From an uncultured Spirochaetota bacterium (GTDB taxonomy: Bacteria > Spirochaetota > Spirochaetia > SZUA-6 > Fen-1364): a stretch of 64,000 nucleotides of DNA. Each line of letters begins with the position of its first letter. Position 1 is the stretch's first letter. The notes beneath the pieces were generated by a model. It saw only the letters and a list, made by a program, of their open reading frames with translations. It searched no databases and had not been told where the DNA came from. Below are positions 2,918 through 32,452 of this stretch, piece by piece. Location of the stretch: assembly GCA_963781885.1 (NCBI GenBank), contig CAWAHW010000002.1, positions 128,001 to 192,000 on the forward strand. Reading direction: 5' to 3'. The position numbers were made by a program, and so were the translations under genes.

Positions 2918-5900
2918 ATGGGCGACCGCATGCGCCCCGTCCCATTCCGGGAGCTCGTGCTCCGCTGCCTGGCGGAGTATCGGGCGGCGGGGTCTCTTTT
3001 CGACGTTCCCACGTCTCACTTCTGGCGCTCCCAGGCCGGGGCGACGGCGAGCATCTTCTCTTCGGGTGCCGCCAACCCGGTCGGCCCCGCGGCAGGTCCC
3101 CACACGCAGCTTGCCCAGAACATCGTCGCCGCATGGTGCGCGGGGGGCCGTTACATCGAGCTCAAGACGGTGCAGAAGATGGACGCGCTCTCCATCGACA
3201 AGCCCTGCATCGATGCCGTCGACGAGGGCTACAACGTTGAATGGTCCACGGAGCTCAGCCTGGATGCCGCCTACGACGAGTACCTGAAGGCCTGGATGCT
3301 TCTGCATTTCCTGGAGACCCTGCTCGGACTTTCGGGGCCAGGCACGGGTGCCGGCTCATTTCTCTTCAACATGAGCGTCGGTTATGACCTGGCGGGTATA
3401 CGCGCCGAAGCGATGGATCGCATCATCAACCGGCTCACGGATTCGTCGCGCGACCCGCTTTTCACCCGCTACCGGGATGAGCTTGCGGGGATCGTCGGCG
3501 ATGCCGGACATTTCTCCGGCACCGGCGGTGAGTCCCGCATGGATGCCCTCCGCGGCCTGCCGTCCCGCATCCCGTCGCGCATCTGCACGTCGGTGACCTT
3601 GTCCACGATGCACGGCTGCCCCCCGGGGGAGATCGAATCCATCTGCGCGTACATGCTGACGGAGAAGCGGCTCGATACGCTGGTGAAGCTGAACCCGACG
3701 CTGCTGGGATTCGATCGCGCGCGGTCGCTGTTGGACGGCATGGGGTACGGCTACGTGCAGCTCAGGCCGGAGGGTTTCCAGAAGGATCTCCAATACACGG
3801 ACGCCCTTCCCATGCTCACCCGTCTCATGGCCGTTGGAAAAAAGGAGGGGCGGCACTTCGGCGCAAAGCTTTCCAACACGCTTGCGGCCGTGAATACCGC
3901 GGGCCGTCTTCCCGGCGGAGAGATGTACATGTCGGGACGGGCGCTGTACCCGCTCACCATGAGCCTTGCCGCGACGCTCGCGGCTGATTTCAAGGGCGGT
4001 CTTCCCCTCTCGTTCTCCGGTGGCGCCTCGGCGTGGAATCTCGCCGCCATTCTCGATGCCGGCATCCGTCCCGTCACCGTTGCAACGGAGCTCCTGAAGC
4101 CGGGCGGCTACGGGCGCATGAAGGAGCTCGCGGAGATCGCCGAGGCCCATCGCGCATCCTGGACGCTCGCGCGGGTCGACGTCGACAAGACGCGCGCGGC
4201 CGCGGAGCAGGCGCGTCTGTCCCCTGCCGCCCAGAAGGATTTCCGCGGCACGGCGCGCGTCTCGGTGCCTGGCAGCCTGCCTCTCTTCGACTGCTTCGTC
4301 GCGCCGTGCGTGGAGGCCTGCCCGATACACCAGGACGTTCCCGAATACGTGCATCTTGCCGGGGTGGGCCGATACGCGGAGGCTCTGGACGTCGTCTGCG
4401 CCCGCAATCCGCTCCCCTTCATGACGGGTTACCTCTGCGACCACCAGTGCATGCAGAACTGCACGCGCATGGACTGGGAAGGAGCGGTGCGCATCCGCGA
4501 CATGAAGAGGATCTCCGCCGAGCGCGGGTATGCGAAGTTCCGGCGCGCACGGAAGGCCAGCCTTCGCGCGGCAAAGCCGCGCGGAGAAAAGATCGCGGTG
4601 GTCGGCGCGGGTCCCGCGGGTATTGCCGCCGCATCGTTGCTGTGCGCGGAGGGCTTCGAGGTCCATGTCTTCGAGCGGGAGGAGGAGGCGGGCGGAATCG
4701 TGCGCTGGCTGCTGCCCGGTTTCAGGATCCCGGCGGGCGCAGTGGAAAAAGACGTCCAGCTGCTTGAGGACCAGGGCGCCCATCTGCATTTCGGGCATGC
4801 CGACCAGACCATTACCGCGCTCCGGACGCAGGGGTTCTCCACCATCCTCGTGGGCACCGGCGCCGAGGCGGACAGGGACATCGGGATCACCGGGGCGCGC
4901 GAGGTGCTCGGGTTCCTCCGCGAGTTCCGGCAGAACCCCCGCGGCCCGAGGCTGGGGCGCAACGTGGTTGTCGTGGGCGCGGGGGACACGGCGATGGACG
5001 CGGCCCGCGCCGCGAGCAGGTGCCCGGGCGTCGGGCAGGTCAGGATCGTCTACCGCCGAAGCATCACCGAGATGCCGGCATCCCGCGAAGAATACGAATC
5101 CGCCCTTGCGGAAGGGGTTGCCTTCAGCTTCCTCCGTTCCCCCGAGAGGTGGAATCAGGGCGTGGGGCTCACGTGCCGCGTGATGGAGCTGGGTCCTGCC
5201 GACGAAACGGGAAGACGCCGCCCCGTGCCGACGGACCGCACCGAGACATTTGACTCCGACGAGGTGATCACCGCGGCAGGGGCCGAGGTGGATCATGCCG
5301 CCATGGGGCGGCTGGGTCTTGATAGTCAGGATCGGAAGATCGATGCGCAGACACAGGAGACCGCGAAGCCCGGCGTCTTCCTGATCGGTGACGCGGCAGC
5401 GGGAGCGGAGACGATCGTGAAGGCGATCGCCTCGGCGCGCAGGGCGGTGGATGCCGTCGTGGCGGCAGAGGCCGCGCGACAGGGAGGCGCATCAGCTACG
5501 CACCGGGCATCGGCCTTGCCGTTGCCCGCGGAGGACACCCGCGCCCTGCGCGCAGCGCGCGATCGCCTGGTGCCGGCATCCCCTGCCGGTACCGCGGACG
5601 CGGCCATGGCGCGGACGGAATCCGCGCGATGCCTGGGCTGCCGGGCGCTCTGCATGAAGTGCGTGGAGGTCTGTCCCAACAGGGCGAACACCCTGGTCGG
5701 CGTGACGGACGGCTTTCGCGACGAGGCACAGATCGTGCACATCGATGCCTTCTGCAACGAGTGCGGCAACTGCGCCACGTTCTGCCCCTGGGAGGGCAGG
5801 CCATACCGGGACAAGCTCACGGTTTTTGCCACGGAGGAAGACTTCCGCGATTCGACGAACCCGGGATTCTTTCTCGTGCACGGGAAGGGACAGGTGAGGC

Positions 5901-6031
5901 TGGCCGGGCAGGTGGGAGCTCTGGCGGTGGACGAAAAGGGCGAGGTCGTCACCGAGGTGGAGCGGCCCGCACGCGCGCTCATCCGCGCCATCGTGCGCGA
6001 CCACGCGTGGCTGATCGGAGGCGTCTCATGA
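2918..6031 (+). CDS. ygfK: YgfK-type Fe-S flavo-oxidoreductase ('putative selenate reductase subunit'; anaerobic purine catabolism)
   Basis: N-terminal MGDRMRPVPF, 'GPAAGPHTQLAQNI', 'TLSTMHGCPP', two GxGxxG Rossmann motifs, C-terminal CxxCxxxCP ferredoxin motifs; followed by ssnA. Confidence 0.92.
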   Translation: MGDRMRPVPFRELVLRCLAEYRAAGSLFDVPTSHFWRSQAGATASIFSSGAANPVGPAAGPHTQLAQNIVAAWCAGGRYIELKTVQKMDALSIDKPCIDAVDEGYNVEWSTELSLDAAYDEYLKAWMLLHFLETLLGLSGPGTGAGSFLFNMSVGYDLAGIRAEAMDRIINRLTDSSRDPLFTRYRDELAGIVGDAGHFSGTGGESRMDALRGLPSRIPSRICTSVTLSTMHGCPPGEIESICAYMLTEKRLDTLVKLNPTLLGFDRARSLLDGMGYGYVQLRPEGFQKDLQYTDALPMLTRLMAVGKKEGRHFGAKLSNTLAAVNTAGRLPGGEMYMSGRALYPLTMSLAATLAADFKGGLPLSFSGGASAWNLAAILDAGIRPVTVATELLKPGGYGRMKELAEIAEAHRASWTLARVDVDKTRAAAEQARLSPAAQKDFRGTARVSVPGSLPLFDCFVAPCVEACPIHQDVPEYVHLAGVGRYAEALDVVCARNPLPFMTGYLCDHQCMQNCTRMDWEGAVRIRDMKRISAERGYAKFRRARKASLRAAKPRGEKIAVVGAGPAGIAAASLLCAEGFEVHVFEREEEAGGIVRWLLPGFRIPAGAVEKDVQLLEDQGAHLHFGHADQTITALRTQGFSTILVGTGAEADRDIGITGAREVLGFLREFRQNPRGPRLGRNVVVVGAGDTAMDAARAASRCPGVGQVRIVYRRSITEMPASREEYESALAEGVAFSFLRSPERWNQGVGLTCRVMELGPADETGRRRPVPTDRTETFDSDEVITAAGAEVDHAAMGRLGLDSQDRKIDAQTQETAKPGVFLIGDAAAGAETIVKAIASARRAVDAVVAAEAARQGGASATHRASALPLPAEDTRALRAARDRLVPASPAGTADAAMARTESARCLGCRALCMKCVEVCPNRANTLVGVTDGFRDEAQIVHIDAFCNECGNCATFCPWEGRPYRDKLTVFATEEDFRDSTNPGFFLVHGKGQVRLAGQVGALAVDEKGEVVTEVERPARALIRAIVRDHAWLIGGVS

Positions 6032-7350
6032 TCGTCCTGCGAAATGCAACGGTTGCGCACCTGCACCCGGCGGAGGTGAGTCCGGGCGTGGACGTCGTGA
6101 TCGACGGCACCGAGATTCAATCCGTCGGCCGGGGGGCGGCAGAAGGGGTCAAGGCGGAACGCAGCATCGACCTTGCCGGAAGACTCCTGATGCCCGGCTT
6201 CGTCTGCGGCCACGACCACTTCTACTCGGGTCTCTCCCGCGGCATCATGGCGCAGATCGCTCCATGCCCCAACTTCGTCTCCACGCTCCAGAATCTCTGG
6301 TGGAAGCTCGACGCGGCCCTGGATGCGGAAGCCGTCCGCCTGAGCGGCCTTGTCTGCGCGATGGAGGCGGTGAAGGCCGGCTGCACGGCGGTCATCGATC
6401 ACCACGCCTCGCCGTCGTGCATCGAGGGCTCCCTTTCCCTGCTCAAGGAAGGATTCGAGAAGGTCGGGTTGCGCGGCGTCCTCTGCTACGAGACGACGGA
6501 CAGGAACGGTCGCGATGGGGCGCGCAAGGGCGCGGAGGAGAACCGCCGGTTCGCCCGGCTCGTGGAGGCGGAAAAGACCACGCGCGGCAAGCTGCGCCTG
6601 GTGGAGGCCATGATCGGCGGCCACGCGCCCTTCACGCTCTCCGACGACGACTGCGCGGCTCTTGCCGACGTGGTGAAGGACACGCATCGCGGCTTTCACG
6701 TGCACGTGGCGGAGGACAGCTTCGATCCCTCGTGGTCCCACCGTACGCATGGCAGGGACCCGCTGCGCCGGCTCGACGATTTCGGGCTCGTGACGGAAGG
6801 CTCGCTCATCGCGCACGGCCTGTACTTGAGCGGCGAAGACCGGGACATCCTCAACGGCCGGGGCGCCTGGCTCGCGCACAACAGCCGTTCGAACATGAAC
6901 AATCACGTCGGCTACAACGGGGAGCTTCCCCACGTGAAGAACGTGGTTCTCGGCACCGACGGCATCGGCTCCGACATGCTCCTGGAGGCGAAGTTCGCCT
7001 ACTTCCGCCACCGGGACGCAGGCGGTCCGCTGGGCCCGGGCGCATTCATGCGCTTTCTCCAGGCCGGCAACGAGCTCCTCCATCGCAGCTTCGGGGAGAG
7101 CTTCGGGCGCGTGGAGAAGGGGTACAAGGCGGACCTCGTGATCCTGGACTACGACCCGCCGACGCCATTCGTGCGGGAGAATGTCGCGGGGCACGTCATT
7201 TTCGGCATGGGCTCCCGGGACGTCGATACCGTGATCGTCAACGGGAAGATCGTGATGGAAAGCCGCGTCTTCCGCATGGACGCATCGTCACTGTACGCGG
7301 AGGCTCAGACAGCCGCCCGTGCGCTCTGGCAAAGGATGGACAAGATATGA
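6028..7350 (+). CDS. ssnA: SsnA-type amidohydrolase
   Basis: HxH 'GHDHFYSGLSRG', 'IDHHASP', 'HVHVAE', 'SNMNNHVG', 'LGTDGIG'; ATGA overlap with ygfK. Confidence 0.9.
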   Translation: MIVLRNATVAHLHPAEVSPGVDVVIDGTEIQSVGRGAAEGVKAERSIDLAGRLLMPGFVCGHDHFYSGLSRGIMAQIAPCPNFVSTLQNLWWKLDAALDAEAVRLSGLVCAMEAVKAGCTAVIDHHASPSCIEGSLSLLKEGFEKVGLRGVLCYETTDRNGRDGARKGAEENRRFARLVEAEKTTRGKLRLVEAMIGGHAPFTLSDDDCAALADVVKDTHRGFHVHVAEDSFDPSWSHRTHGRDPLRRLDDFGLVTEGSLIAHGLYLSGEDRDILNGRGAWLAHNSRSNMNNHVGYNGELPHVKNVVLGTDGIGSDMLLEAKFAYFRHRDAGGPLGPGAFMRFLQAGNELLHRSFGESFGRVEKGYKADLVILDYDPPTPFVRENVAGHVIFGMGSRDVDTVIVNGKIVMESRVFRMDASSLYAEAQTAARALWQRMDKI

Positions 7351-8970
7351 TTCCCGTCGAGGCCCGCATGGAGTCGTCCTCACGTCTCACGCTTCCGGGA
7401 GTGCTCGCGCGCAGTACGCGCGCCTTTGCCCGCCGGCCCGCGCTGGGCATGCTCGGTGCGGCGCCGCTCACCTATGGCGAGCTCGGCGCGCGGGTGCGGG
7501 GCACCGCATCGCTCCTGCGCGGGCACGGCATCCGTCCCGGAGACCGCGTCGCCATCCTCTCGGAGAACATGCCGCAGTGGGGCATCGCCTACTTCGCCAT
7601 CGCCTCCCTGGGGGCGGTGGTCGTCCCCGTCATGACCGAGTTCACCGAGGGACAGATTCAGCACATCCTCGATCACGCAGGGTGCGCCGCCGTCTTCGTC
7701 TCCCGCAAGCTGCGGCCGAAGCTCGGGGACGCGCCCCGCCTGCAGCTTCCGATCGAGCCTCTTGCCGGGCTGGCGGATGCGCGCGTTGTCCTTCCCCTGG
7801 TGGAGCCCGATGACCTTGCGGCGGTCATCTATACGTCCGGCACGACGGGGCACTCCAAGGGCGTCATGCTCACGCATCGCAACATCGTCTTCGACGCAGA
7901 GGCCACGCGCCATCTCGTCGACGTCACGCACCGCGACAGGATCCTTTCCATCCTCACCCTCGCCCACACCTACGAGTGCACGCTGGGTCTCGTCACAATC
8001 GTGAGCTGCGGGGCCTTTATCACCTATCTCGACCGGCCGCCGTCGGCGAGCGCGCTCCTGCCCGGCCCTCGCGTCCGTGCGTCCCACCATCGTGCTGTCC
8101 GTTCCCCTCGTCGTGGAGAAGATCTATCGCTCGGGCATCCTTCCCGAGCTGGAGAAGAGGTCCCTCTACCACGTGCCCCTGCTGTGGCGGGTCGTCGTCC
8201 TCCTGGCGGGCTGGAAGCTGCGGAAAACATTCGGCGGCAGGATCAAGATACTCGCCATCGGCGGCGCGGCGCTGGCGCCCGACGTCGAGCGCTTCCTCCA
8301 CCAGGCGATGTTCCCGTACGCAATCGGGTACGGTCTCACGGAGACCTCGCCGCTCGTCGCGGGCGCTCCCCCGTTCACTACCCGGCCAAGGTCCACGGGC
8401 ACCGTGCTCCCCGGCATCGAGGTGCGCATCTCCGATGTGCGGCCCGGTACGCGCGAAGGAGAGATACAGGTGAAGGGCCCCACCGTGATGAAGGGCTACT
8501 ATCGCAACCCTGACGCCACCGCGCAGGCATTCACGCCGGACGGCTGGCTGCGCACGGGGGACCTGGGCGAGTTCGACGCGCATGGGCACCTCTACATCCG
8601 CGGCCGGTCGAAGACCATGATCCTCGGCGCGTCGGGAGAGAACATCTATCCCGAGGAGATCGAGGCGGTGCTCAACCAGTCGCCGATGGTCGATGAATCG
8701 CTCGTCTACGGCGATTCGGGGGGTGTCGCCGCGCTCGTCGCGCTGAAGCCCGACGTGCTGGCCTCGCTTGTCGGCGCCGTCCAGGAGGGCATGGCCCGGG
8801 CGGAGCATGCCGCCGCGGAGCTCCTGGAGCGGATCAGGAAGGAAGTCAACACCCAGCTTGCCGCTTTCAGCCGTCTTTCCCGCGTGGAGCTGCAGCGCGA
8901 GCCGTTCGAAAAGACGCCGTCGCAGAAGATCAAGAGATTCCTCTACCCGCGGACGCCTCCGGCGGAATAG
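7347..8970 (+). CDS. Long-chain fatty acid-CoA ligase (AMP-binding), frameshift near 8062
   Basis: AMP motif YTSGTTGHSKG in the first frame; GYGLTET, RTGDLG and NIYPEEIE in the second frame. One extra base joins them (probable assembly indel). Confidence 0.85.
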
Positions 8971-9119: not shown

Positions 9120-9521
9120 ATGGATGACGTGCGATGGATGCAACGTTTTTCCAATTACCGCAAGGCGGTCACCAACCTCGACGCGGCATTGCGCCAGGAA
9201 TCATACAATGATCTCGAGCTGCAGGGATTGATAAAGGGATTCGAGCTTTGCTACGAACTGGCGTGGAAAACGCTGCAGGACCTTCTCAGAGAACGCGGTT
9301 ACGACGATATCGCCGGTCCCAAGCCGGCCATACGTCAGGCATTCAAGGACGGACTGATCGGCGACGGAGAGATCTGGCAGGCCATCCACGAAGCGCGAAA
9401 TCTCGCCGCGCACACATATGACCTGGACCAGGCGCGGCGTCTTGCCGTGGAGATCAGAAGCTCATACGCGCGGGCATTCAGAGAGCTGCGCGATCGGCTC
9501 GAGATGAAAGCCGTCGAATGA
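9120..9521 (+). CDS. HEPN-domain toxin (nucleotidyltransferase substrate-binding protein, HI0074 family)
   Basis: 'GLIKGFELCYELAWKTLQD' family motif and HEPN Rx4H motif RNLAAH. Confidence 0.88.
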   Translation: MDDVRWMQRFSNYRKAVTNLDAALRQESYNDLELQGLIKGFELCYELAWKTLQDLLRERGYDDIAGPKPAIRQAFKDGLIGDGEIWQAIHEARNLAAHTYDLDQARRLAVEIRSSYARAFRELRDRLEMKAVE

Positions 9522-9823
9522 CGAAGGGCGGGTTCACGGAGGAACGGTGGCTCGCCATCGCGCGGCTGGTCGCGTCAATAAAGCCCTGCCAGCGAATCAT
9601 CGTCTTCGGCTCACGGGCCAAGGGAGTCTGGCGTGAAGGCTCCGATGTGGATCTCGCAGTATGGGGCCCGTCGTGGGATCCCCTGGATGCCGAGCACGCG
9701 CGGGACTTGTTGGAGGAGCGCTGCTTTCCCTGGAGCTTCGACGTGATTCTTCCCGAGCACGTGAAGGAGAGGCAGTTGTTCGAGCACATCCAGCGCGTCG
9801 GGTTCGAGATATCCGCTGGGTGA
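9518..9823 (+). CDS. Minimal nucleotidyltransferase (MNT) antitoxin
   Basis: 'FGSRAKG...SDVDL' GS-x10-DxD motif; ATGA overlap with the HEPN gene. Confidence 0.88.
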   Translation: MTKGGFTEERWLAIARLVASIKPCQRIIVFGSRAKGVWREGSDVDLAVWGPSWDPLDAEHARDLLEERCFPWSFDVILPEHVKERQLFEHIQRVGFEISAG

Positions 9824-9871: not shown

Positions 9872-10508
9872 TCACGCCTTGTCGGATCGGCGTCGCGCGC
9901 GCACGTCCAGCCGCTCCGCGCGCTGGCGGAAGCGCAGCCAGCGGCGCATGCCGCGCTCCACCAGCAGCATCATGTCCTCCGCGAGGTCCGTGGAATCCTC
10001 CGCGCCCGACGCAAGGGAGACGGCGGTGAAGACCGCCATGAGCATGCGCCGGGGGTCCTTGAAAAGCCCGGTGCGGAATGCGCCTGTCCGGGTGCCCTCG
10101 TCGAGTATGTCCGTGAGCAGCGCGCGCACGTGCGCAAAGAGGGTGGCGCCCTTTTGCACGCGCTCCTCCGCGCCCGGGTAGAGGAAGCGTCTCTCTCCAC
10201 CGTAAAGACCGCGCAGGATGGCGCTGGCCCGCAGCGTGAGATTGGTCCAGCGGAAAAGCGCCTTCAGCCGGTAGGCGGGCGAGCGGAGGCTTGTGACCCG
10301 GCCGGCTGATTTCCTTTGCGGCCCTCTCCTCGATCTGGTCCACGACGGAGGAGTAGAAGGTTTCCTTGCTGGGGAAGTAGGTGTAGAAGCTCCCCATGCC
10401 GAGCCCGGCGGCGCTCGTGATGTCGCGGATGCTCACGCTTCGGTAGCCGCTCTGGCCGAAGAGCCTCTCTCCGACAGAAAGAAGCAAACGCCTGCGGTTT
10501 CTCTCCAT
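9872..10508 (-). CDS. TetR family regulator, frameshift near 10301
   Basis: HTH 'FGQSGYRSVSIRDITSAAGLGMGSFYTYFPSKE'; C-terminal domain continues in another frame to the stop at 9872. Confidence 0.8.
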
Positions 10509-10675
10509 GTACACTCCCCCGGATTTGCGGCACGAATATCCGGTTTCAAGGGGGATTCAGTCGCCCGCCGATCGTCAGGCGTGGAGAAATCCCCCGAAAA
10601 ACCCCCTGTTTGGCGCTTCCGCGCGCGCCGCAGGTTGACATGCCCGCCAGAAGCACGGTTTTCTCTTTCCAGAGT

Positions 10676-11992
10676 ATGGACGAGGCAGCCAAAAAGCAAG
10701 GTCCCGACGATCACTACCACCTCCGCTGTCCACTGTGCGGAGGCATCTTCGCGGACAGGCCCGATCGTTTCCTGCTCACCTGCCCCGAGCCACACGCCCC
10801 CGCGCTCCTTCGCGCCCGCTACCGTCAGAGGCGCCTCGTGGCGCACCCCGAGCACACGGGAGTGTTCCGATTCTTCGACTGGCTGCCCGTACGACGCGCT
10901 CTGAAAGGCGGTGTCGGCCCGACAGTTTTCCAGAGCACCGGCCTGGGGCCTTCACTCGGCCTGGACAACCTTTTCATCATTTGGAACGGTTGGTGGCCCG
11001 AGAAGGGCGGCTTCATGGAGACCTGCACATTCAAGGAGCTCGAGGCGCAGGCGGTCTGCGGGCGCATCGGCGACGGCTGGCAGGATTCGCTCGTCGTTTC
11101 CTCCGCGGGGAACACGGCGCGCGCCTTCCACCAGGCCTGCACGCGCCACGGCGTGCCCGCCCTCCTGGTCGTGCCGGGACACGGGCTTCCCCTGCTCTGG
11201 AGCACGACCCCCTCACAGCCGCACGTCCGCCTGGCCGTGCTGGATGGCGGGGCGGATTACGCCGATGCAATTGCGCTGGGAAACGGCATCGCCCGCACGC
11301 GCGGATACTTCCCCGAAGGCGGCGCGCTCAACGCTGCCCGGCGCGACGGCATGGGCACGGTGGTGCTGGCCGCGGTGGAGAAGACGGGACGCGTCCCGCA
11401 GCATTACTTTCAAGCCGTGGGAAGCGGCACAGGAGCCATCGCGGCGTGGGAGATGAATCTGCGTCTCATGGAAGACGGAAGATTCGGCGCGGAGAAGATG
11501 CGCCTCCATCTCTCGCAGAATGCGCCCTTCACGCCCATGGTCGACGCCTGGGAGGCGGGCAGGCGCGAGCTTGCGGAGATACCCGGCGGGCGCGCGCTTG
11601 CCGCCTCCATTCACGCCCCGGTGCTCTCCAACAGGAATCCGCCGTACGGGATCGCCGGTGGGCTCTACGATGCCCTCAGCGATACCGGCGGCTTCATGTA
11701 CAGGGTCACCGCCGCGGAGGCAGGGGCCGCGGGCCGGCTTTTCGAGAAGACAGAGGGAAGCGATATCGACCCGGCGGCAGAGGTCGCCGTGGCATCGCTC
11801 CGGCAGGCGGTTGATCTCGGCAGGATCGGCGCGCATGACCTGGTGGCCCTCAACATCACCGGCGGCGGCCAGATCCGGCTGCGTCGGGACAAGAGACCCG
11901 CGGCGCTCCGGCCGCAGGCGACCCTCTCCATGAACGACGTGCGGCGGGAAGGGGAGGGGGCGCCGGCACTATTGAGAGAGGCACTGGCATGA
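10676..11992 (+). CDS. Cysteate synthase (PLP-dependent, threonine synthase-like)
   Basis: N-terminal CxxC; 'TCTFKELEA' (PLP Lys), 'SSAGNTARAF', 'ARRDGMGT', 'YFQAVGSGTGAIAAWE', 'VLSNRNPPY', which are characteristic of the cysteate synthase family. Confidence 0.85.
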   Translation: MDEAAKKQGPDDHYHLRCPLCGGIFADRPDRFLLTCPEPHAPALLRARYRQRRLVAHPEHTGVFRFFDWLPVRRALKGGVGPTVFQSTGLGPSLGLDNLFIIWNGWWPEKGGFMETCTFKELEAQAVCGRIGDGWQDSLVVSSAGNTARAFHQACTRHGVPALLVVPGHGLPLLWSTTPSQPHVRLAVLDGGADYADAIALGNGIARTRGYFPEGGALNAARRDGMGTVVLAAVEKTGRVPQHYFQAVGSGTGAIAAWEMNLRLMEDGRFGAEKMRLHLSQNAPFTPMVDAWEAGRRELAEIPGGRALAASIHAPVLSNRNPPYGIAGGLYDALSDTGGFMYRVTAAEAGAAGRLFEKTEGSDIDPAAEVAVASLRQAVDLGRIGAHDLVALNITGGGQIRLRRDKRPAALRPQATLSMNDVRREGEGAPALLREALA

Positions 11993-13233
11993 GCGACATC
12001 TTTGAAAAGTGCGGCACGGACGGCGGCTACTTCGGACGCTTCCGGGTCCAGGGAGACATGTACTTCTCCCAGCCCATACTCGAGGGCGCGCCCGGGCCGC
12101 GCATGAAGTTCCAGGGCAAGGACGTGATCGTCTGGGCCATCAACAACTACCTGGGCATCGCGGGCCGCGACGAGCTCACCGCCGCGGCGGCCGCTGCGCT
12201 TTCGCGGCACGGCCCGAGCGCGCCGATGGGCTCGCGTCTGCTCACGGGCAACTCCGAGCAGCACATCGAGCTGGAGAGGCGCCTCGGCGCCTTCTGCGGC
12301 AAGCCCGCCTCCATCGTGTTCAATTACGGCTACCTTGGCGTGCTGGGAACCGTCTCCGCGCTGGTCGGCCGCGACGACGCGGTGGTGATCGACTCCCTCT
12401 CCCATGCCTCCATGATCGATGCAACGGTGCTCGCCTCCGCGGGCAGGCGCTTTCGGCCCTACAAGCACAACGACATGGACGACCTGGAGCGCCACCTGCG
12501 CGGCGCGCGCGCGGACGTGAAGGGCGGCATCCTTGTCATCACGGAAGGCGTTTTCGGCATGAAGGGCAATCTGGCCCGGCTGCCCGACATCTGCCGGCTT
12601 GCAAAGCAATACGGCGCGCGGCTTTTCGTCGACGACGCGCATGGTTTCGGCGTGATGGGGGCGAACGGCCGCGGCACGGGCGAGCACTTCGGCTGCCAGG
12701 ACGGCATCGACCTGTATTTCGGAACTTTTGCAAAGGCCTTTGCCGCCATCGGCGGGGTGACCGCAGGAGAGAAGAGCGTCGTCGAGTGGGTGCGCTACAA
12801 CGCCCGCACGAATGTCTTCGCCAAGGCGCTGCCGCTCGTCTACGTGAAGACGGTGGAAGCGGCGCTCACGCTCGTGGAGAACGAGCCGCAGCGTCGGGAG
12901 CGCATGTGGGCCATCGCCAAGAGACTCCAGGCGGGGCTCGTGGATCTTGGTTTCGACATCGGCGGCACGGAGTCTCCCATCACGCCGGTCTACGTCATTG
13001 CGGGAAACGAAGAGACCGCGATGGCCATGATCGCCGATCTGCGGGAGAAGCACGGCGTCTTCGTCTCCGGGGTCACCTATCCGGTCGTGCCGCGCGGGGT
13101 CATCCTTTTCCGCATGATCCCCACCGCGGCGCACACGGAGGAGGACGTGGACAGGACCATCGACGCGTTCCGCGCGATGCGCGATTCGATGAAGCTCGAT
13201 CTTTCCACCAAGCCGTCGCAGCAGAATCGATGA
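11989..13233 (+). CDS. alpha-oxoamine synthase, probable cysteate C-acyltransferase (SulA/CapB-like)
   Basis: NNYLG, HASMID, DDAHG, GTFAKA (PLP Lys). N-terminus 'DIF...YF..P.LEG..GPRMKFQGK' and 'VFAKALP' resemble Bacteroidota sulfonolipid enzymes more than SPT/BioF. Coupled to cysteate synthase. Confidence 0.8.
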   Translation: MSDIFEKCGTDGGYFGRFRVQGDMYFSQPILEGAPGPRMKFQGKDVIVWAINNYLGIAGRDELTAAAAAALSRHGPSAPMGSRLLTGNSEQHIELERRLGAFCGKPASIVFNYGYLGVLGTVSALVGRDDAVVIDSLSHASMIDATVLASAGRRFRPYKHNDMDDLERHLRGARADVKGGILVITEGVFGMKGNLARLPDICRLAKQYGARLFVDDAHGFGVMGANGRGTGEHFGCQDGIDLYFGTFAKAFAAIGGVTAGEKSVVEWVRYNARTNVFAKALPLVYVKTVEAALTLVENEPQRRERMWAIAKRLQAGLVDLGFDIGGTESPITPVYVIAGNEETAMAMIADLREKHGVFVSGVTYPVVPRGVILFRMIPTAAHTEEDVDRTIDAFRAMRDSMKLDLSTKPSQQNR

Positions 13234-14039
13234 GCCGGGCGCTCGTGACCGGCGCCTCCCGCGGCATCGGGAAGGCCATTGCCGCTTCACTGGTCGCTGC
13301 CGGATACGAGGTTGTCGGCACGAGCCGGCATCCCGAGGCGCTTCCTCCGCACGACAGGATTGACGGCGTCCGCTACCTTGCACTCGACCTGTTGGAGGCC
13401 GGAAGCATCGCGTCGCTTGCGCGGGAAGCCGGACCGGTGGACGTCCTGGTGAGCAATGCCGGGCAGAGCCAGATCGGCGCGGTGGAAGAGCTGCCGGTCG
13501 ACGAGGTGAGAAGGCTTTTCGAGGCGAATCTCTTTGGCGCGCTGCGGGTGATACAGCTATTTCTTCCCGGCATGCGCCAGAGGCGCGCGGGAAAAGTCAT
13601 TGCGGTCGCTTCCATGGCCGCCGTCACACCCGTGCCTTTTCTCTCCTCCTACGCGGCGAGCAAGGCTGCCCTTGTGGCGATGATGCGCGGGCTGCGCTAT
13701 GAGACGGCATCCTTCGGGATCACGGTCGCCGTCGTTGCCCCCTTCGATATCAACACGAGCATTCCCCTGGACATCCGCTACGATGAGCGCTCGGCCTACA
13801 TGCCCGACATCGCCACGGTGCACCAGAGGCGCGACAAGGCCCTTGCCGAAGCGCCGGGACCCGATCTGGTCGCACGCAAGGTGATCTCCATCCTCCGCTC
13901 GCGCCGGCCCGGCTTCTTTCATCCCGTGGGCCGCGGGGCGGGGCTGAACGCGTTTCTCCTGCGGCATCTGCCCGCGAGGACAGTGGAGCGCATCATCCGG
14001 CGCCTCTTTGGGCTTCCGCGAGGGGCAGCTTCACGGTAA
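13230..14039 (+). CDS. Short-chain dehydrogenase, putative 3-dehydrocapnine (3-keto long-chain base) reductase
   Basis: TGASRGIG, SNAG and YAASK motifs; ATGA-coupled to the AOS gene. Confidence 0.8.
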   Translation: MSRALVTGASRGIGKAIAASLVAAGYEVVGTSRHPEALPPHDRIDGVRYLALDLLEAGSIASLAREAGPVDVLVSNAGQSQIGAVEELPVDEVRRLFEANLFGALRVIQLFLPGMRQRRAGKVIAVASMAAVTPVPFLSSYAASKAALVAMMRGLRYETASFGITVAVVAPFDINTSIPLDIRYDERSAYMPDIATVHQRRDKALAEAPGPDLVARKVISILRSRRPGFFHPVGRGAGLNAFLLRHLPARTVERIIRRLFGLPRGAASR

Positions 14040-15828
14040 AACTGGTCTTGCTGCCGGGCACACTGGAAAAGCTGAGGCTGCCGCGGTGGGCCTCCACGAT
14101 GTGCTGGCAGATCGACAAGCCCAGCCCCGTGTTTGTCTTCGTCATCTTCGTGCTGAAAAAAGGCGTGAAAATCCGGTCCTGGATCTCGCGGGGGATGCCG
14201 TAGCCGTTGTCCATGACGGTCACCTCCGCGCAGTCCTCCTCCCGGTTGTGCTGCATCGTCACCTCGATGAGACCGTGGTCCAGCACCGCCTCCACGCTGT
14301 TCATGACGAGGTTGATGAAGAGCTGCTTCAGCTTGTTCTCTTCACCGCTCACGACCAGCGGCTGCTCCGGGAAGCTTGTCCGCACCACGAGACGCTTCTG
14401 GTTCAGCTTGTGACCGAGCAGAAGGATCACCTCGCCCAGAAGCTCCCCGAGGTTCACGGTGCGGCCGTCCACCTGGCTCACGCGTGAGAAGGAGAGCAGG
14501 CTGCCGACGATCGCGACGATCCGGCTGAGCTCATTTTCGATCTTTCCGAGCTTCTCCTTCCCGTCCCCGTCCAGATCCTTCAGCTTCAGAAGCTCGACGT
14601 AGTTCTGGATGATGCCCAGCGGGTTGTTGATCTCGTGTGCCACCCCGGCGGCGAGCTCCGCGATGGAGGCGATCTTCTCCGCGCGCAGGAGGTACTCCTT
14701 CACGAAGTGGTCCATCGACACGTCTTCCAGCATGAGGATGGTCCCCGTGAACCTGTAGTCCTCGTCTTGCAGAGGGAAGCTCTTCAGGAGCAGGAAGCGT
14801 TCGTCGTTCACGGTGATGCCTTCCCAGCTGTGGCGCTCGCGGCCGACGATCTTTTCGCAGATGTCGCCGGCATCGCTCACGTGATGGACCTCCAGCATCT
14901 CGCCGATGGGCACGCGCGGCAGGACGTGATCGTCGGCGCCCAGGATGCGCCGCGCGGCCTGGTTGCTCAGGTAGATCCGGTTGTCGGTGTCCAGGATGAT
15001 CACGCCGACCGGCAGGTCGCTGATGATGCTCTCATTGTAGCGTTTGATCAGCGTGAGCTGCTGGTGCTGGCCCTCGCCCTCCTCGATGTTGAACATGAAG
15101 CTGTAGGCGAGCTTCAGGAGCTTGAACCGGTCCAGGTCGCGCACGAGCTCCGTGCCGCGCCGCTGCCCGTTCTTCAGCACCGTCACGCGGTCGGCGAACT
15201 TGAAGACCTCATCCACGCTCGTGGAGACGTAGATGATGGCCTTGTCGCGGCGGCGGTACTCGGTGAGAAGGCGGAACACCTGGTCCATCTCCTCCGAGTT
15301 CAGGCGGCTGGAGATCTCATCCACGACGAGGATGTCCGGCTCCAGGGATACGACGCGCGCGATCTCCACCATCTGCTGCTCGGCGAGGCTCAGCCGTCCG
15401 ACGGGCGTGTCCAGCGCGACGTGCACGTCGAGCTCCTCCAGCAGGTTGCGGCACCGTTCCCGCACCTCGGAGGGAAAACGCTGCCGCAGCCATACTTTCG
15501 GCAGCCTGCCCAGGGAGATGTTCTCCACGGCGTTCAGCGTCGGGATGAGGCTCAGGTTCTGGTAGACGATGCCGATGCCGTGCCGGATGGCCGCCCGGGG
15601 CGTGGGGAAATCCACCTCGCGGCCCTCCAGCAGGATCGTGCCCTTCTGCTTGCGCAGGTCGCCGCTCAGGATCTTCACGAGGCTGGATTTTCCGGAGCGT
15701 CGCTCCCCGACCAGGGCATGGATCTCCCCCGCGAACAGGTCGAAATCGACACCCTTCAGGGCGGCAACCTCGCCGAAGGAGAAATGGATGTTCTTCATCT
15801 GGAGAAGAGGAAGCCGGGGCTCCTTCAC
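13993..15828 (-). CDS. Fusion protein: degenerate sugar-ABC ATPase domain + PAS + histidine kinase
   Basis: aa ~8-245 RbsA/AraG-like (GERRSGKS, IVYQ, LSLAEQQMVEIAR, VVDE, ADRVTVLKNG); PAS 'SIISDLPVGVIILD...NQAARRILG'; H-box AHEINNPL, N-box NLVMNSVEA, G1 DNGYGI, F-box, G2 GLGLSI. One continuous ORF with no TM segment. Confidence 0.9.
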   Translation of the reverse strand: MKEPRLPLLQMKNIHFSFGEVAALKGVDFDLFAGEIHALVGERRSGKSSLVKILSGDLRKQKGTILLEGREVDFPTPRAAIRHGIGIVYQNLSLIPTLNAVENISLGRLPKVWLRQRFPSEVRERCRNLLEELDVHVALDTPVGRLSLAEQQMVEIARVVSLEPDILVVDEISSRLNSEEMDQVFRLLTEYRRRDKAIIYVSTSVDEVFKFADRVTVLKNGQRRGTELVRDLDRFKLLKLAYSFMFNIEEGEGQHQQLTLIKRYNESIISDLPVGVIILDTDNRIYLSNQAARRILGADDHVLPRVPIGEMLEVHHVSDAGDICEKIVGRERHSWEGITVNDERFLLLKSFPLQDEDYRFTGTILMLEDVSMDHFVKEYLLRAEKIASIAELAAGVAHEINNPLGIIQNYVELLKLKDLDGDGKEKLGKIENELSRIVAIVGSLLSFSRVSQVDGRTVNLGELLGEVILLLGHKLNQKRLVVRTSFPEQPLVVSGEENKLKQLFINLVMNSVEAVLDHGLIEVTMQHNREEDCAEVTVMDNGYGIPREIQDRIFTPFFSTKMTKTNTGLGLSICQHIVEAHRGSLSFSSVPGSKTSFTVKLPLAEAQRGAG

Positions 15829-15829
15829 G

Positions 15830-17155
15830 CTAGGGCTCCAGGCCGAGCTTCTTCATCTTGTTGTACAGCGTCTTTCGATGGATGCGCAGGATTTCCGCGG
15901 CCTTGTGCTTCACGCCGTCGCTCTTCTCCAGCGCGTCGAGGATCATCTGGCGCGACACCGATTCGTAGGCATTGGCCAGGGTTGCCTGCCCGCTCACCGC
16001 GTAGTCGGTATACTGCCGCGGCAGGTCATCCACGGTGAGCTCCGTTGTTTCGCAGAAGATCACCGCGCGCTCGATGCAGTTCTTCAGCTCCCGGACATTG
16101 CCCGGCCAGTTGTGCGCCAGGAGGACCTGTCGGACCCCGGGTGAAAGCCCCTGGATCTGCTTCGAGTACTGCTCGTTGAACTGCAGGAGGAAATACCCCG
16201 CCAGGAGGCCGATGTCCTCCCGGCGCTCGCGCAGGGGCGGCAGGGCGATGCTGATCACCGACATGCGGTAGAACAGGTCCTCGCGGAAGGTGCCCGCGGC
16301 GATCATCTGCGCGATGTTCTTGTTCGTGGCGGCGATGATGCGCACGTCGGCCTTCACCGCCCGGGAGCCGCCCACGCGCGTGAGCGCGCGCTCCTGCAGG
16401 ACGCGCAGCAGCTTCGCCTGCGTGTCGAGGCTCAGGTCGCCGATCTCGTCCAGGAAGAGGCTGCCGCCGTCGGCGAGCTCGAACTTGCCCCGGTGCATCT
16501 TGTGCGCCCCGGTGAACGCCCCTTCCTCGTGACCGAAGAGCTCGCTCTCCAGCAGCGTCTCGGGTATCGCCGCGCAGTTGATCTTCACGAACGGTTTCGC
16601 GCTGCGGTGGCTGAGCGCGTGCAGGGCGTCGGCGACGAGCTCCTTGCCCGTGCCGCTCTCACCGGTGATCACGACGGAGGCATCCGTCGGGCCGACCTTG
16701 TCGATGGTGCGGAATATCTCCCGCATGCGCGGGTTGACCGACCAGACGCGGAAGCTCGGGGGAAGCAGCGGCTCCACGCGGCGGCGGAGGCCATTCGTCC
16801 GCGCGAGCTGCTCCACCTCGTTGAGGAGCTCGGGGATGCGGAGCGGCTTCTCGTAGAAGTTCATCGCCCCGTACCGCATTGCCCGCACGACGTTCTCCGC
16901 GCTCGCGAATCCCGAGATCATGATGATGGGGATCGAGCGATCCCTTTCCTTGACCTCCTTGAGCAGTGCGATCCCGTCCATCACCGGCATCTTCACGTCC
17001 ACGATGATCAGGTCGGGCGGGTCCTCAACGAGGAGGCCCGGCACCTCTTCCGGAAGCGTCGTGTGGCGCGCGCGATAGCCGTGGGACGTCAGCAGCTCGG
17101 ACAGGGAAAGGCACATCTCAATCTCATCGTCCACGATGAGAACGTTGAAGGCCAT
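15830..17155 (-). CDS. NtrC-family sigma54-dependent response regulator
   Basis: REC (VDDE, DVKMP), AAA+ GESGTGKE, intact ESELFGH..GAFTGA, FLDEIG, WPGNVREL, Fis-type HTH 'AAEILRIHRKTLYNK'. Confidence 0.95.
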   Translation of the reverse strand: MAFNVLIVDDEIEMCLSLSELLTSHGYRARHTTLPEEVPGLLVEDPPDLIIVDVKMPVMDGIALLKEVKERDRSIPIIMISGFASAENVVRAMRYGAMNFYEKPLRIPELLNEVEQLARTNGLRRRVEPLLPPSFRVWSVNPRMREIFRTIDKVGPTDASVVITGESGTGKELVADALHALSHRSAKPFVKINCAAIPETLLESELFGHEEGAFTGAHKMHRGKFELADGGSLFLDEIGDLSLDTQAKLLRVLQERALTRVGGSRAVKADVRIIAATNKNIAQMIAAGTFREDLFYRMSVISIALPPLRERREDIGLLAGYFLLQFNEQYSKQIQGLSPGVRQVLLAHNWPGNVRELKNCIERAVIFCETTELTVDDLPRQYTDYAVSGQATLANAYESVSRQMILDALEKSDGVKHKAAEILRIHRKTLYNKMKKLGLEP

Positions 17156-17161
17156 GGCGCC

Positions 17162-17190
17162 ATGATAGGCGGCGGCGCGCCTGAAATCAA
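17162..17190 (-). promoter_or_regulatory. sigma70-type promoter for leaderless RR-kinase operon
   Basis: TTGATT-N17-TATCAT on the minus strand, 6 nt before ATG 17155; no SD. Confidence 0.55.
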
Positions 17191-17268
17191 GCGCGCGCCG
17201 CGGTTGCGTGCAGGAAGCGCCGTGTTGCGTGCCCCCCGGGATTCGTGTACAACGAGTGGTGAGAAGCC

Positions 17269-18360
17269 ATGCGCGGGGACACATCGACACGCCGGAGAGC
17301 TCTCGCCTGCGCCCTCTGCGTCACTCTCGCCGCCCTTGCCGCCGCCTCCTGTTCCGGGGCGAATGCCGGGCGGAAAGGCGCCTCTCCTCCCATCCGCATC
17401 GGATTCCTCGTGAAGCGCCCGGAAGAGCTGTGGTTCCAGAATGAATGGCGCTATGCGCAGAAATGCGCCGATACCAATGGCTTCCAGCTCATCAAGATCG
17501 GCGTGCCGGACGGCGACAAGGTGCTCGCCGCCATCGACAATCTTGCCGCGCAGGGCGCCCAGGGCTTCGTGATATGCACCCCTGACGTGCGCCTGGGACC
17601 GGCCATCCTCTCCCGCGCCTCCACCTATGGCATGAAGGTATTCACCGTCGACGACCAATTCGTGGGTCCTGACGGCAGCTTCATCAAGGTGCCCTACATG
17701 GGCATCTCCTCGCCGCAGATCGGCGCGGCGGTCGCGAACGCCCTCTACGACGAGTATCAGAAGCGCCAGTGGCGGCCCGAGGAGACGGCGGCACTCGCCG
17801 TGACATTCGACGAGCTGAACACCGTCAAGGAGCGCACCGACGCTGCGGCGGAAACCCTGAAGGCGCGAAGCTTCCCCGCGGACCGCATCTTCCGCATTCC
17901 CGAAAAAACGGCGGACCTGCCCGGCGCATTCGACGCCGCGAGCATCGCCCTGTCCCAGCACGCCGAGGTAAAGCGCTGGCTGGTTTTTTCCATCAACGAC
18001 GAGGGGGTGCTGGGGGCCATTCGCGCGATGGAAAACCGCGGCTTCAACGCCGACACGGTGATCGGCATCGGCATTGGCTCCAGCCTGGGCATCATCGAGT
18101 TTCGCAAGCGCGAGATCACGCCCTTCTTCGCGTTCTGTCTCATCAACCCATACATGCACGGCTTCCAGACCACCGAATGGCTCTACCGGTGGGTGAGCGC
18201 CGGCATCCAGCCGCCGATGGACACCCGCACCCCCGGTACGATCGTGACGCGCGACGACTATCGGGACATCTTCCAGAGCCGCGGACTTGAGGAGCTGCTC
18301 CTCCCGCAGCCGGGCGACGCGAAGCCGCAGGACGCCGACAGGGGACGGGGCGAATCATGA
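17269..18360 (+). CDS. araF: L-arabinose-binding-protein-like lipoprotein
   Basis: 'IGFLVKRPEELWFQNEW', 'GFVICTPD', 'VDDQFV', 'NDEGVLG' closely parallel E. coli AraF; lipobox-like LAAASC. Confidence 0.85.
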   Translation: MRGDTSTRRRALACALCVTLAALAAASCSGANAGRKGASPPIRIGFLVKRPEELWFQNEWRYAQKCADTNGFQLIKIGVPDGDKVLAAIDNLAAQGAQGFVICTPDVRLGPAILSRASTYGMKVFTVDDQFVGPDGSFIKVPYMGISSPQIGAAVANALYDEYQKRQWRPEETAALAVTFDELNTVKERTDAAAETLKARSFPADRIFRIPEKTADLPGAFDAASIALSQHAEVKRWLVFSINDEGVLGAIRAMENRGFNADTVIGIGIGSSLGIIEFRKREITPFFAFCLINPYMHGFQTTEWLYRWVSAGIQPPMDTRTPGTIVTRDDYRDIFQSRGLEELLLPQPGDAKPQDADRGRGES

Positions 18361-19334
18361 ACGCCCGCGCGGATGCCCTTTCTCGCGGCCGGCTCGTCGC
18401 CGCCCGGGTGCGCGGCGCCTGGAGCCGCTACACGAGCCTCTTGATCCTGGTGGTCATCGTCGCCGCCTCTTCGATATTCGTCCCGCACTTCCTCTCTTGG
18501 ATCAACATCATCGGCTTGGGCCTGTCGATCTCCATGGTGGGCATGGTGGCCTGCTCGATGCTCCTGTGCCTGGCCTCCGGTGGATTCGATCTCTCGGTGG
18601 AATCGGTCGTCGCATTCTCCGGGGTGCTCGCCGCGGTCGTGATCAATTCCAGCGGCAGCGTGCTCGGTGGCGTCCTGGCAGGCATACTGGCCGGCGGTCT
18701 TGTCGGCGCGGTCAACGGGGCCATCGTCTCCTACTTTTCCCTGAATCCGCTGATCACCACCCTCGCCGTCATGCAGATCGTGCGCGGTCTCGGCTTTCTG
18801 GTCTCCCAGGGCTCGGCAGTGGGCGTGAACAATACGGGCTTTTTCGTTCTGGGTGCCGGGCGCATCCTGTCCATCCCGAACCCGATCTGGATCACCGTTT
18901 TTCTCATGATCCTCTTCGCGTTCGTGCTCACGCGCACCTCGTTCGGTCGCAACATGCGCGCGGTCGGGGGAAATGAGACGGCGGCGCGCTTGAAAGGGAT
19001 CGCGGTCAACCGCACGAAGATGATCGTCTATATCGTGCAGGGCTTGATCGCGGGTTTTGCCGGTGTCGTGCTCGCCTCCCGCATGACCAGCGGTCAGCCC
19101 AATACGTCCCAGGGATTCTCCATGGACGTGATTTCCGCCTGCGTCCTGGGCGGCGTATCGCTCTCGGGTGGCGTGGGGACGCTCAGCGGCACGATCATCG
19201 GTGTGCTGATCATGGGCTCCGTCCAGAATGCCATGAATCTTCTCAATATCCCGACCTTCTACCAGTACATCCTGCGCGGCTTCATCCTTCTCCTCGCCGT
19301 GCTTCTCGACCAGTTCAAACGCAGGAGCAAGTAG
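18357..19334 (+). CDS. araH: L-arabinose ABC permease-like protein
   Basis: 'GMVACSMLLCLASGGFDLSV', 'ASRMTSGQP', 'ISACVLGGVSLSGG' match AraH; ATGA-coupled to araF. Confidence 0.85.
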   Translation: MNARADALSRGRLVAARVRGAWSRYTSLLILVVIVAASSIFVPHFLSWINIIGLGLSISMVGMVACSMLLCLASGGFDLSVESVVAFSGVLAAVVINSSGSVLGGVLAGILAGGLVGAVNGAIVSYFSLNPLITTLAVMQIVRGLGFLVSQGSAVGVNNTGFFVLGAGRILSIPNPIWITVFLMILFAFVLTRTSFGRNMRAVGGNETAARLKGIAVNRTKMIVYIVQGLIAGFAGVVLASRMTSGQPNTSQGFSMDVISACVLGGVSLSGGVGTLSGTIIGVLIMGSVQNAMNLLNIPTFYQYILRGFILLLAVLLDQFKRRSK

Positions 19335-19347
19335 CCGCCGCGCCGCA

Positions 19348-19399
19348 ACGTGCACGAATGTGCACGTCGACTATTGACGAGCGTGGCGCCACGTGCACG
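19348..19399. promoter_or_regulatory. Putative enhancer (UAS) pair for the sigma54 activator
   Basis: ACGTGCAC-GAAT-GTGCACGT (19348-19367) and the related CGTGGCGCCACGTGCACG (19382-19399), 33 bp apart and 80-135 bp upstream of the -24 box. Confidence 0.55.
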
Positions 19400-19479
19400 A
19401 CGTCCTGGGCAGCGCGACTGGGGCACATTCTATTTGCTTACCATGAATGCAGTTGACTCATTTTCCCCGCGCGCTGCCC

Positions 19480-19496
19480 TTGGTACGCCGCTTGCA
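19480..19496 (+). promoter_or_regulatory. sigma54 (-24/-12) promoter
   Basis: TTGGTACG-CCGC-TTGCA; one mismatch to TGGCACG-N4-TTGCA with exact spacing. Confidence 0.8.
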
Positions 19497-19539
19497 CCAT
19501 GAGCAGCGAGGCCCGGAACGGCTCGAGGAGGCTCAGGCG

Positions 19540-32131: not shown

Positions 32132-32155
32132 GAACCACAGAGGAAGGGGGATGGA

Positions 32156-32449: not shown

Positions 32450-32452
32450 GCC

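Follow-up and report, generated by a model that had tools for sequence, protein, structure and literature searches.

A predicted capnine-type sulfonolipid operon in an uncultured Spirochaetota bacterium

Background

Bacterial synthesis of sulfonolipids appears to be limited to Bacteroidota (Ryan et al. 2023, PMC10191378). In the established chemistry, an archaeal-type synthase makes cysteate from phosphoserine (PMC10191378), cysteate acyltransferases (SulA, CapB or CFAT) condense cysteate with acyl groups carried on acyl carrier protein (ACP) or coenzyme A (CoA) to give 3-ketocapnine, and short-chain dehydrogenases/reductases (SDRs) reduce this ketone (PMC13692747, PMC11211663, PMC9304779). 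Here we describe three coupled genes, for a cysteate synthase, an alpha-oxoamine synthase (AOS) and an SDR, that are predicted to carry out these steps in a spirochaete. The genes lie in a stretch of 64,000 nucleotides, hereafter the window, from an uncultured Spirochaetota bacterium (assembly GCA_963781885.1, contig CAWAHW010000002.1, positions 128,001 to 192,000 of the forward strand).

All 18 CFAT/SulA-like entries in Table S1 of Pang et al. (PMC13692747) come from Bacteroidota genera. In a survey of gut genomes, loose homologues occurred in 21 phyla, yet Bacteroidota accounted for 9632 of 9633 genomes after filtering (PMC11525784), and no spirochaete term occurs in eight text-searchable supplement files of that study. 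Wu et al. likewise reported loose homologues in 13 phyla, with no spirochaete term in the text portion examined (PMC11211663). No claim of spirochaete sulfonolipids was found in the titles and abstract openings returned by a literature search that covers mainly open-access work, and no such report was found in passages of PMC1586193, PMC12045153, PMC11334938, PMC11193023, PMC9278070 and PMC11087976.

We put the probability that a capnine-type sulfonated long-chain base is the product of the operon at roughly 0.78. This product is favored by the combination of a synthase that passes the TIGR03844 model, an AOS that falls in the CFAT clade, the lysine K279 in that AOS, and the co-occurrence of the synthase. 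An earlier note, made from the letters of the window alone, had proposed a capnine- or sulfonolipid-making operon in a probable spirochaete, and the grouping of the AOS and the placement of the host lend support to that proposal.

Related loci were collected in one scan of GTDB species representatives, for which the window AOS was aligned with 32 homologues, and the best 80 of 515 relatives were analyzed (individual loci are numbered L001 onward). The scan patterns do not match the usual motifs of Bacteroidota CFATs, so Bacteroidota are scarce in this set by design, and the counts given below are not a census. A further set of near homologues comprised 117 proteins, after 3 of 120 were dropped because they were shorter than 400 amino acids.

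A cysteate synthase heads a three-gene operon

All three genes are on the + strand: the cysteate synthase (gene 1; 10676..11992; 438 amino acids), the AOS (gene 2; 11989..13233; 414 amino acids) and a classical SDR (gene 3; 13230..14039; 269 amino acids). ATGA overlaps join them at both junctions. The open reading frames at 10676-14039, together with the family matches described below, confirm the earlier description of three ATGA-coupled genes.

Gene 1 scores 464 bits on the cysteate synthase model TIGR03844, above the equivalog cut-off of 324.9, and falls far under the cut-offs of threonine synthase models. The best PDB match is a cysteate synthase, 9K3C (E 1.8e-119), and the next match has an E value of only 3.9e-08. 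The protein aligns with the archaeal-type enzyme over residues 13-416, and it has the features of this threonine synthase-derived type, including an N-terminal CxxC and the pyridoxal phosphate (PLP) lysine K120. An identical protein of 438 amino acids is present in the protein collection, which is consistent with a start at 10676. Synthases from related loci behave similarly, as 9 of 9 scanned exceed the TIGR03844 cut-off. Archaeal-type cysteate synthases are also found in Alistipes and Odoribacter (PMC10191378). A synthase of the CapA type, as in Capnocytophaga, was considered and ruled out, because gene 1 is of the TIGR03844 type. In public annotations, several of the spirochaete proteins are named cysteate synthase, and the AOS is given a generic name or is called glycine C-acetyltransferase. 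By the reaction of the characterized family, the PLP-dependent product of gene 1 would exchange the phosphate of O-phospho-L-serine for sulfite to yield L-cysteate.

In half of the 80 related loci (40), the gene directly upstream of the AOS encodes a synthase; these 40 represent five named phyla and one unclassified genome. These loci comprise 34 of the 53 from spirochaetes, two from Dehalococcoidales and one each from WOR-3, Lentisphaeria, Sandaracinaceae and the unclassified genome.

The alpha-oxoamine synthase belongs to a sister lineage of Bacteroidota enzymes

Among PDB entries, the AOS matches 28EH (404 bits) and SulA 7U7H (383 bits) better than serine palmitoyltransferase (SPT) 3A2B (269 bits). 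It is under cut-off on every model for the other AOS families: for SPT, 322 against 640 on the CFB model NF047600, 293.9 against 500 on NF047599 and 230.4 against 670 on NF047603; for BioF, 314.6 against 426.45; and for Kbl, 329.6 against 460 and 278.7 against 493.

Phylogenetic placement was based on 49 rows chosen from 153 and analyzed with IQ-TREE (LG+G4), with the tree rooted on BioF and Kbl. Bacteroidota proxies (L082, L083, P0126 and others) stand in for the characterized CFATs; L083 and P0126 score 519-564 bits on 28EH/7U7H, well over the 383-404 bits of the window AOS. The window AOS and these proxies form one clade (support 100/100, branch 0.66), and SPT, BioF and Kbl are outside it. 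This is the grouping with cysteate acyltransferases that the earlier note had expected. Within the clade, the Bacteroidota CFATs form a group (100/99) that leaves out the window AOS, and the clade of the latter has support of 98/91. A quick tree of 93 rows, without bootstrap and with 61 of 154 rows dropped, mostly as near-duplicates, agrees. In these trees, the window AOS is a sister lineage to the Bacteroidota CFATs and is not nested inside them.

A Foldseek search with an AlphaFold model of the monomer (pLDDT 80) returned SulA 7U7H first and confirmed the fold. Entry 28EH was not among the matches of this search, and the model is too rough for pocket geometry.

By analogy with the known enzymes, the AOS would catalyze a decarboxylative condensation of cysteate and a long-chain acyl thioester that yields 3-ketocapnine. 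The donor would most likely be acyl-ACP from general fatty-acid synthesis. Three single-chain proteins (P0121, P0122 and P0124) are fusions of a fatty acyl-AMP ligase (FAAL), an ACP and an AOS with the lysine discussed below, and P0121 is located inside the window clade, which supports a long-chain acyl-ACP donor.

Active-site residues

The motif VFAKALP occupies AOS residues 276-282, with K279 encoded at 12823-12825, and the PLP lysine is K249. K279 aligns with K281 of SulA and K280 of the Capnocytophaga ochracea enzyme (CoCFAT). This position, which the scan pattern did not include, is lysine in all 80 loci, in all 117 near homologues and in each of 123 Bacteroidota CFAT-like proteins. SPT-like proteins have alanine here (9 of 9), BioF-like proteins mostly have threonine, and Kbl-like proteins have asparagine, threonine or serine. 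The motif reported in the earlier note is therefore present, and what it gave as the norm for SPT and BioF at the lysine position is corrected by these counts.

Radka et al. (PMC9304779) proposed Lys281 of SulA, which is alanine in SPT, as a marker of cysteate acyltransferases. The same paper reports that SulA K281A still binds cysteate, which implies a structural role for the lysine. The earlier suggestion that this residue selects the sulfonate is not borne out, and we rejected it on the K281A data; the sulfonate is held by Asn52, His139 and Lys250. These three residues are the sulfonate ligands in CoCFAT according to Pang et al. (PMC13692747), who found Y115, K250 and K280 to be the most critical.

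The window AOS keeps the sulfonate-binding residues N52, H139 and K249 as well as G114, Y115 and K279, which are critical by mutagenesis. Cysteate-dependent catalysis by CoCFAT needs F113, G114, Y115, H139, K250 and K280, and to a lesser degree N52, C141, H219 and T247 (PMC13692747). Eight of these ten residues are identical in the window AOS; the exceptions are tyrosine for F113, a state shared by 60 of 123 Bacteroidota CFAT-like proteins, and serine for C141. Six CFAT-type residues (K279, Y115, E186, G190, F244 and A248) are invariant in all 80 loci. The scan pattern included F244 and A248, but both are also found in all 117 proteins that were gathered independently of it.

The short-chain dehydrogenase/reductase

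Gene 3 encodes an adh_short (Pfam) protein with a TGxxxGxG motif and residues N100, S128, Y141 and K145. These motifs are also common to inactive candidates for 3-ketocapnine reductase (KCR). On the KdsR model NF049977, it scores 135.7 bits against a cut-off of 400, and this model ranks sixth of 213 families; SDRs of neighboring loci score 146-176 where the model is among the best five shown. PDB and plasmid searches returned only generic SDRs. SDRs of low mutual similarity are able to reduce 3-ketocapnine (PMC11211663). From its position in the operon, the SDR would use NADPH to reduce the 3-keto group and so yield capnine. We consider this role reasonably probable and regard it as the weakest step of the pathway. 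N-acylation to the full sulfonolipid would then depend on an enzyme encoded elsewhere, as the 64-kb window has no match to the GNAT-type N-acyltransferase-like protein of related loci described below.

In 19 of the 80 loci (7 from spirochaetes and 12 others), the gene that directly follows the AOS gene encodes an SDR of the same family; in the remaining 61, no such SDR adjoins the AOS. That low frequency invites another explanation, namely that the first two steps are right and either the SDR is a passenger or the ketone is reduced only after N-acylation, the order proposed for ceramide in Caulobacter; the operon alone would then yield only 3-ketocapnine. The order of reduction and acylation is unsettled according to Radka et al. 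(PMC9304779), and in Aminicenantes-type loci, NAD-dependent epimerase-family genes occupy the SDR slot. However, the SDRs beside the AOS form one clade (SH-aLRT 99), apart from the other SDRs of the window, and keep the same position in spirochaetes and in distant Aminicenantes-type loci. The gene is also translationally coupled, and several SDRs with little similarity to one another reduce 3-ketocapnine (PMC11211663). We judge this explanation unlikely.

Evidence against the prediction, and alternatives

A number of observations weigh against a capnine-making operon. An adjacent synthase is lacking in 19 of 53 spirochaete loci (two of which have an incomplete upstream region) and, within the fetched flank, in 21 of 27 non-spirochaete loci. 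Just 7 of the 80 loci combine synthase, AOS and SDR, and cultured isolates are not represented in the set. The identity of the AOS to Bacteroidota CFAT-like proteins is 42-47%, compared with 34-43% to SPT-like proteins. The SDR reaches no family cut-off among the 25 best families shown, is missing from the close loci L002-L006, and is up to 42% identical to unrelated plasmid SDRs. Four types of protein encoded near the AOS in other loci (GNAT, YeiH, PAPS reductase and VOC, described below) gave no tblastn match in the 64-kb window. Finally, the active site is a mosaic. Pang et al. (PMC13692747) changed CoCFAT residues to their SPT counterparts, and at the 23 positions defined by these swaps (and by K280A), the window AOS is identical to CoCFAT at nine (Y115, E186, G190, F244, A248, K279, S360, Y364 and V366), identical to SPT at eight (S82, L85, G120, S123, S141, G245, G256 and V357, with S82 and S141 near the pocket) and like neither at six; the assignment at position 149 differs between HMMER and MAFFT alignments. 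Two of the six, Y113 and V118, occur commonly among Bacteroidota CFAT-like proteins.

The mosaic raises the question of whether the AOS is instead a serine-preferring or promiscuous SPT-like enzyme that makes sphingoid bases, with a KdsR-like SDR and with cysteate used partly or not at all. S82 and S141 lie near the side-chain pocket, the KdsR model ranks among the best for the SDR, and 40 of 80 loci have no adjacent synthase. Yet the AOS groups with CFAT proxies at 100/100, outside SPT; the six invariant CFAT-type residues hold in every locus; SPT-ward swaps in CoCFAT, for which the primer list includes A82S and C141S, gave no serine activity (PMC13692747); and the AOS is tightly coupled to an intact synthase. 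An SPT-like activity is therefore improbable. The SPT-type states are best read as ancestral states that were kept by the sister lineage. Because this lineage has SPT-like residues at 8 of 23 positions, we infer, and do not assert, cysteate specificity for the window AOS.

Another alternative accepts cysteate as the substrate and replaces the lipid, such that the cluster makes a small sulfonate (an aminoketone or amino-alcohol, an osmolyte or part of a secondary metabolite) from cysteate and a short acyl-CoA. Synthases of the same family do serve other ends: in two Streptomyces plasmids they belong to nonribosomal peptide synthetase (NRPS) clusters, and the 15 kb shown lack an AOS. In addition, no ACP or lipid-transfer gene lies within the operon, and partners of unclear role recur: 20 of 80 loci have a double-VOC protein, and 10 of 80 have a protein resembling ketopantoate reductase. 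However, the AOS families that use short chains, Kbl and BioF, are the outgroup; palmitoyl-CoA was used by all six CFATs tested (PMC13692747); FAAL-ACP fusions occur in the lysine-bearing clade; and no NRPS or polyketide synthase (PKS) was found among 56 other window proteins scanned. We therefore consider a small, non-lipid product very improbable, and a capnine-type base remains the preferred reading.

In the two Streptomyces plasmids (L089 and L090), the cysteate synthases are 46-47% identical to gene 1, and the NRPS clusters also carry dihydroxyphenylglycine or type III PKS genes.

Host

The earlier note took the host to be a spirochaete rather than a member of Bacteroidota, and comparisons across the window agree. 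A Spirochaetaceae metagenome-assembled genome (MAG; L001) matches window positions 9877-19604 colinearly, with 87.2% identity over 9735 bp; the span takes in a sensor kinase, a response regulator and sugar-transport genes and includes five genes outside the operon. Spirochaetota account for 53 of the 80 related loci. Window positions 53.6-60 kb, some 40 kb from the operon, match four Spirochaetia loci at 70-76%, and every named source among the 120 best AOS matches (four are named with an organism) is a spirochaete. In 10 further Spirochaetota MAG loci, ssnA, usually with ygfK, lies upstream of a tetR-synthase-AOS arrangement. The GC content at third codon positions (GC3) of the three operon genes is 0.79-0.87, in line with 0.81-0.92 for the other measured genes of the chromosome. 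The window proteins scanned include no marker gene, ribosomal or otherwise. Judged by these similarities, the host is an uncultured member of Spirochaetota.

A Bacteroidota host, a recent transfer of the cluster from Bacteroidota or a chimeric join could be argued from the several indels in the window, from the lack of a marker gene among the scanned proteins and from the two of 80 loci that are labeled Cytophagia. Such an origin is scarcely credible given the colinear match across five non-operon genes, the Spirochaetia matches 40 kb away, the spirochaete sources of the best AOS matches, the concordant GC3 and a Bacteroidota CFAT clade (100/99) that leaves out the window AOS.

Recurring neighbors in related loci

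Several genes that might supply missing steps recur near the AOS. Two of them relate to sulfur supply: a CysH-like reductase of phosphoadenylylsulfate or adenylylsulfate (PAPS/APS), which is at most 2.1 kb from the AOS in 9 loci and 7-8 kb off in 6, and a putative sulfate exporter, YeiH, which is near the AOS in 13. The double-VOC (glyoxalase-fold) protein has about 350 amino acids (L015:8734-9810 and 19 other loci from several phyla), and its look-alikes in the Atlas are mostly from Bacteroidota; it is a candidate for a further pathway step. Eight of the 80 loci (L064:12134-13252; also L012, L022, L055, L062 and L067-L069) have a gene for a 370-amino-acid, GNAT N-acyltransferase-like protein no more than 5.5 kb downstream, and we regard its product as a candidate capnine N-acyltransferase. 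It presumably resembles bacterial ceramide synthase. Passages of PMC11087976 contain no GNAT wording, and Atlas searches with the VOC and GNAT neighbors returned only family labels, with no function.

In a number of Spirochaetia loci (L026, L028, L030-L032, L034-L038, L043, L044, L054 and L059), the synthase is gone and the TetR gene abuts the AOS gene; L032 keeps a synthase fragment in place. Such organisms may import cysteate or hold a synthase elsewhere.

An Aminicenantes-rich subclade (L056-L078, minus L059 and L060) has the AOS with an SDR gene or with genes for a CAAX protease and an epimerase, and no synthase was found in the fetched flank. Several of these loci are labeled Eubacteriales or Cytophagia, yet they cluster with Aminicenantes sequences.

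On a Legionella lytica plasmid (NZ_CP071528.1; L081:4986-9857), a lysine-type AOS adjoins a FAAL-ACP-ComA fusion and ComB. It is possible that ComA, a phosphosulfolactate synthase, and ComB supply sulfonate for lipids of this kind by a different route. An open reading frame further upstream on this plasmid matches the VipE effector family.

Regulation and other features of the window

A divergent gene for a TetR-family regulator (9872..10508, - strand) precedes the operon, with TetR_N in its 5' half and a TetR_C_43-like domain in its 3' half. The gene is frameshifted near 10285-10290. A long-chain acyl-CoA ligase-like gene (7347..8970, + strand), with AMP-binding matches in both halves, is frameshifted near 8050-8077. 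The two neighbors named in the earlier note are thus present, and each is broken here. The TetR frameshift is probably an assembly indel. In L001, the TetR orthologue is one open frame of 213 amino acids, other window genes are split as well, and the synthase is recorded on a 1.56-Mb contig; from these facts, we infer long-read indels rather than decay.

Of the 80 loci, 44, all from Spirochaetota, encode a TetR orthologue no more than 2.3 kb from the AOS. A conserved inverted repeat (10519..10543) just upstream of the TetR start is a candidate operator; it is the sole match to its pattern in the window, and by itself it does not exceed chance, as 25 of 100 shuffles contain a match. One or the other of two related palindromes is found near the TetR start in 26 of the 44 TetR loci (41 matches in 1.37 Mb), a count that is descriptive because the patterns were drawn from the same loci. 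TTGACA at 10635..10640 (+ strand), a candidate -35 element, lies 35 nt ahead of the synthase start. In 24 of 40 loci (a raw count), TTGAC[ACT] occurs in the 130 nt that precede the synthase match. A scan for consensus promoters found no site in the window, the one terminator-like site is not above shuffles, and Rfam gave no match at gathering score. The candidate palindrome is probably the site through which TetR regulates the operon and its own gene.

The acyl-CoA ligase is probably a neighbor and not part of this unit. It occurs in only one of the 80 related loci (L006), so its membership of the operon was rejected.

Other genes of the window are split in ways that fit assembly indel errors: an ABC ATPase gene (19447-20327) and an acyl-CoA dehydratase activase-like gene (53646-57881), which is a single frame of about 1440 amino acids in L010 and L041. 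A sensor kinase gene (13993-15828; 93% identical in L001), whose product has a sugar-ABC ATPase-like domain at its N terminus, converges on the SDR gene with a 47-nt 3' overlap. At 9120-9823, an HI0074-family and nucleotidyltransferase pair, resembling a toxin-antitoxin system, occupies the slot of YeiH in close relatives; it is found in none of the 80 loci, and its first gene has a lower GC content (0.57). The window also contains the selenium-linked genes ygfK, ssnA and ygeY (2930-7350 and 58870-60075) and a bacterial microcompartment locus (32132-38166) with genes for shell proteins, an acylating aldehyde dehydrogenase, an RpiB-like protein and Rpe.

Comparison with known systems

If the prediction is correct, a coupled and regulated operon in dozens of environmental spirochaete genomes would break the link between sulfonolipids and Bacteroidota, and sulfonolipids would become a weaker biomarker of Bacteroidota in soils and sediments. 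On balance, we somewhat favor a broader proposal: that the window AOS represents a second, old CFAT lineage, sister to that of Bacteroidota and not derived from it; that the TetR-controlled operon has been inherited across many free-living Spirochaetota and is also present in MAGs labeled Aminicenantes, WOR-3, Lentisphaeria, Dehalococcoidales and Myxococcota; and that sulfonolipids serve as membrane lipids in these organisms. Because the lineage keeps SPT-type residues at eight of the positions proposed to distinguish CFAT from SPT, it would mark a halfway point between the two and would narrow cysteate selectivity to about nine residues (Y115, E186, G190, F244, A248, K279, S360, Y364 and V366). 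This natural mosaic offers a direct handle on the choice of cysteate over serine, which both structural papers leave open. The double-VOC protein, the GNAT, YeiH and the CysH-like reductase are candidates for missing steps.

Gene 1 belongs to the same family as the archaeal-type cysteate synthase (TIGR03844; 9K3C). Methanogen cysteate synthases are tied to coenzyme M genes, and those of Streptomyces plasmids adjoin NRPS genes; gene 1 is instead coupled to an AOS. Bacterial SPT shares its fold and PLP scaffold with the window AOS, which has lysine rather than alanine at position 279. The window SDR has the GxxxGxG and YxxxK motifs of KdsR (BT_0972; PMC9278070), with a score below the KdsR cut-off, as given above.

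The Bacteroidota capnine/sulfobacin pathway (cysteate synthase or CapA, CapB/SulA, CapC/KCR and N-acylation) follows the same three-step logic with the same enzyme classes. Unlike that pathway, the window has no detected N-acyltransferase. It unites the three genes in a single coupled operon with a dedicated TetR in Spirochaetota, whereas the reductases of C. gleum and A. finegoldii are encoded away from cfat/cys (PMC11211663).

The closest characterized relatives of the AOS are SulA of Alistipes finegoldii (7U7H) and CFAT of Capnocytophaga ochracea (28EH), on the same AOS branch, with K281 and K280 equivalent to K279. In the numbering of these enzymes, the window AOS keeps N52, G81, G114, Y115, H139, E187, D216, H219, F245, T247, A249, K250 and F278, and differs in having serine for A82 and C141, valine for M277 and glycine for S120, S246 and A257. 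It lies outside the Bacteroidota CFAT clade, at the 42-47% identity noted above. The predicted chemistry is that of known systems; the novelty lies in the phylum, in a dedicated regulator for the operon and in a CFAT sister lineage whose active site is mixed.

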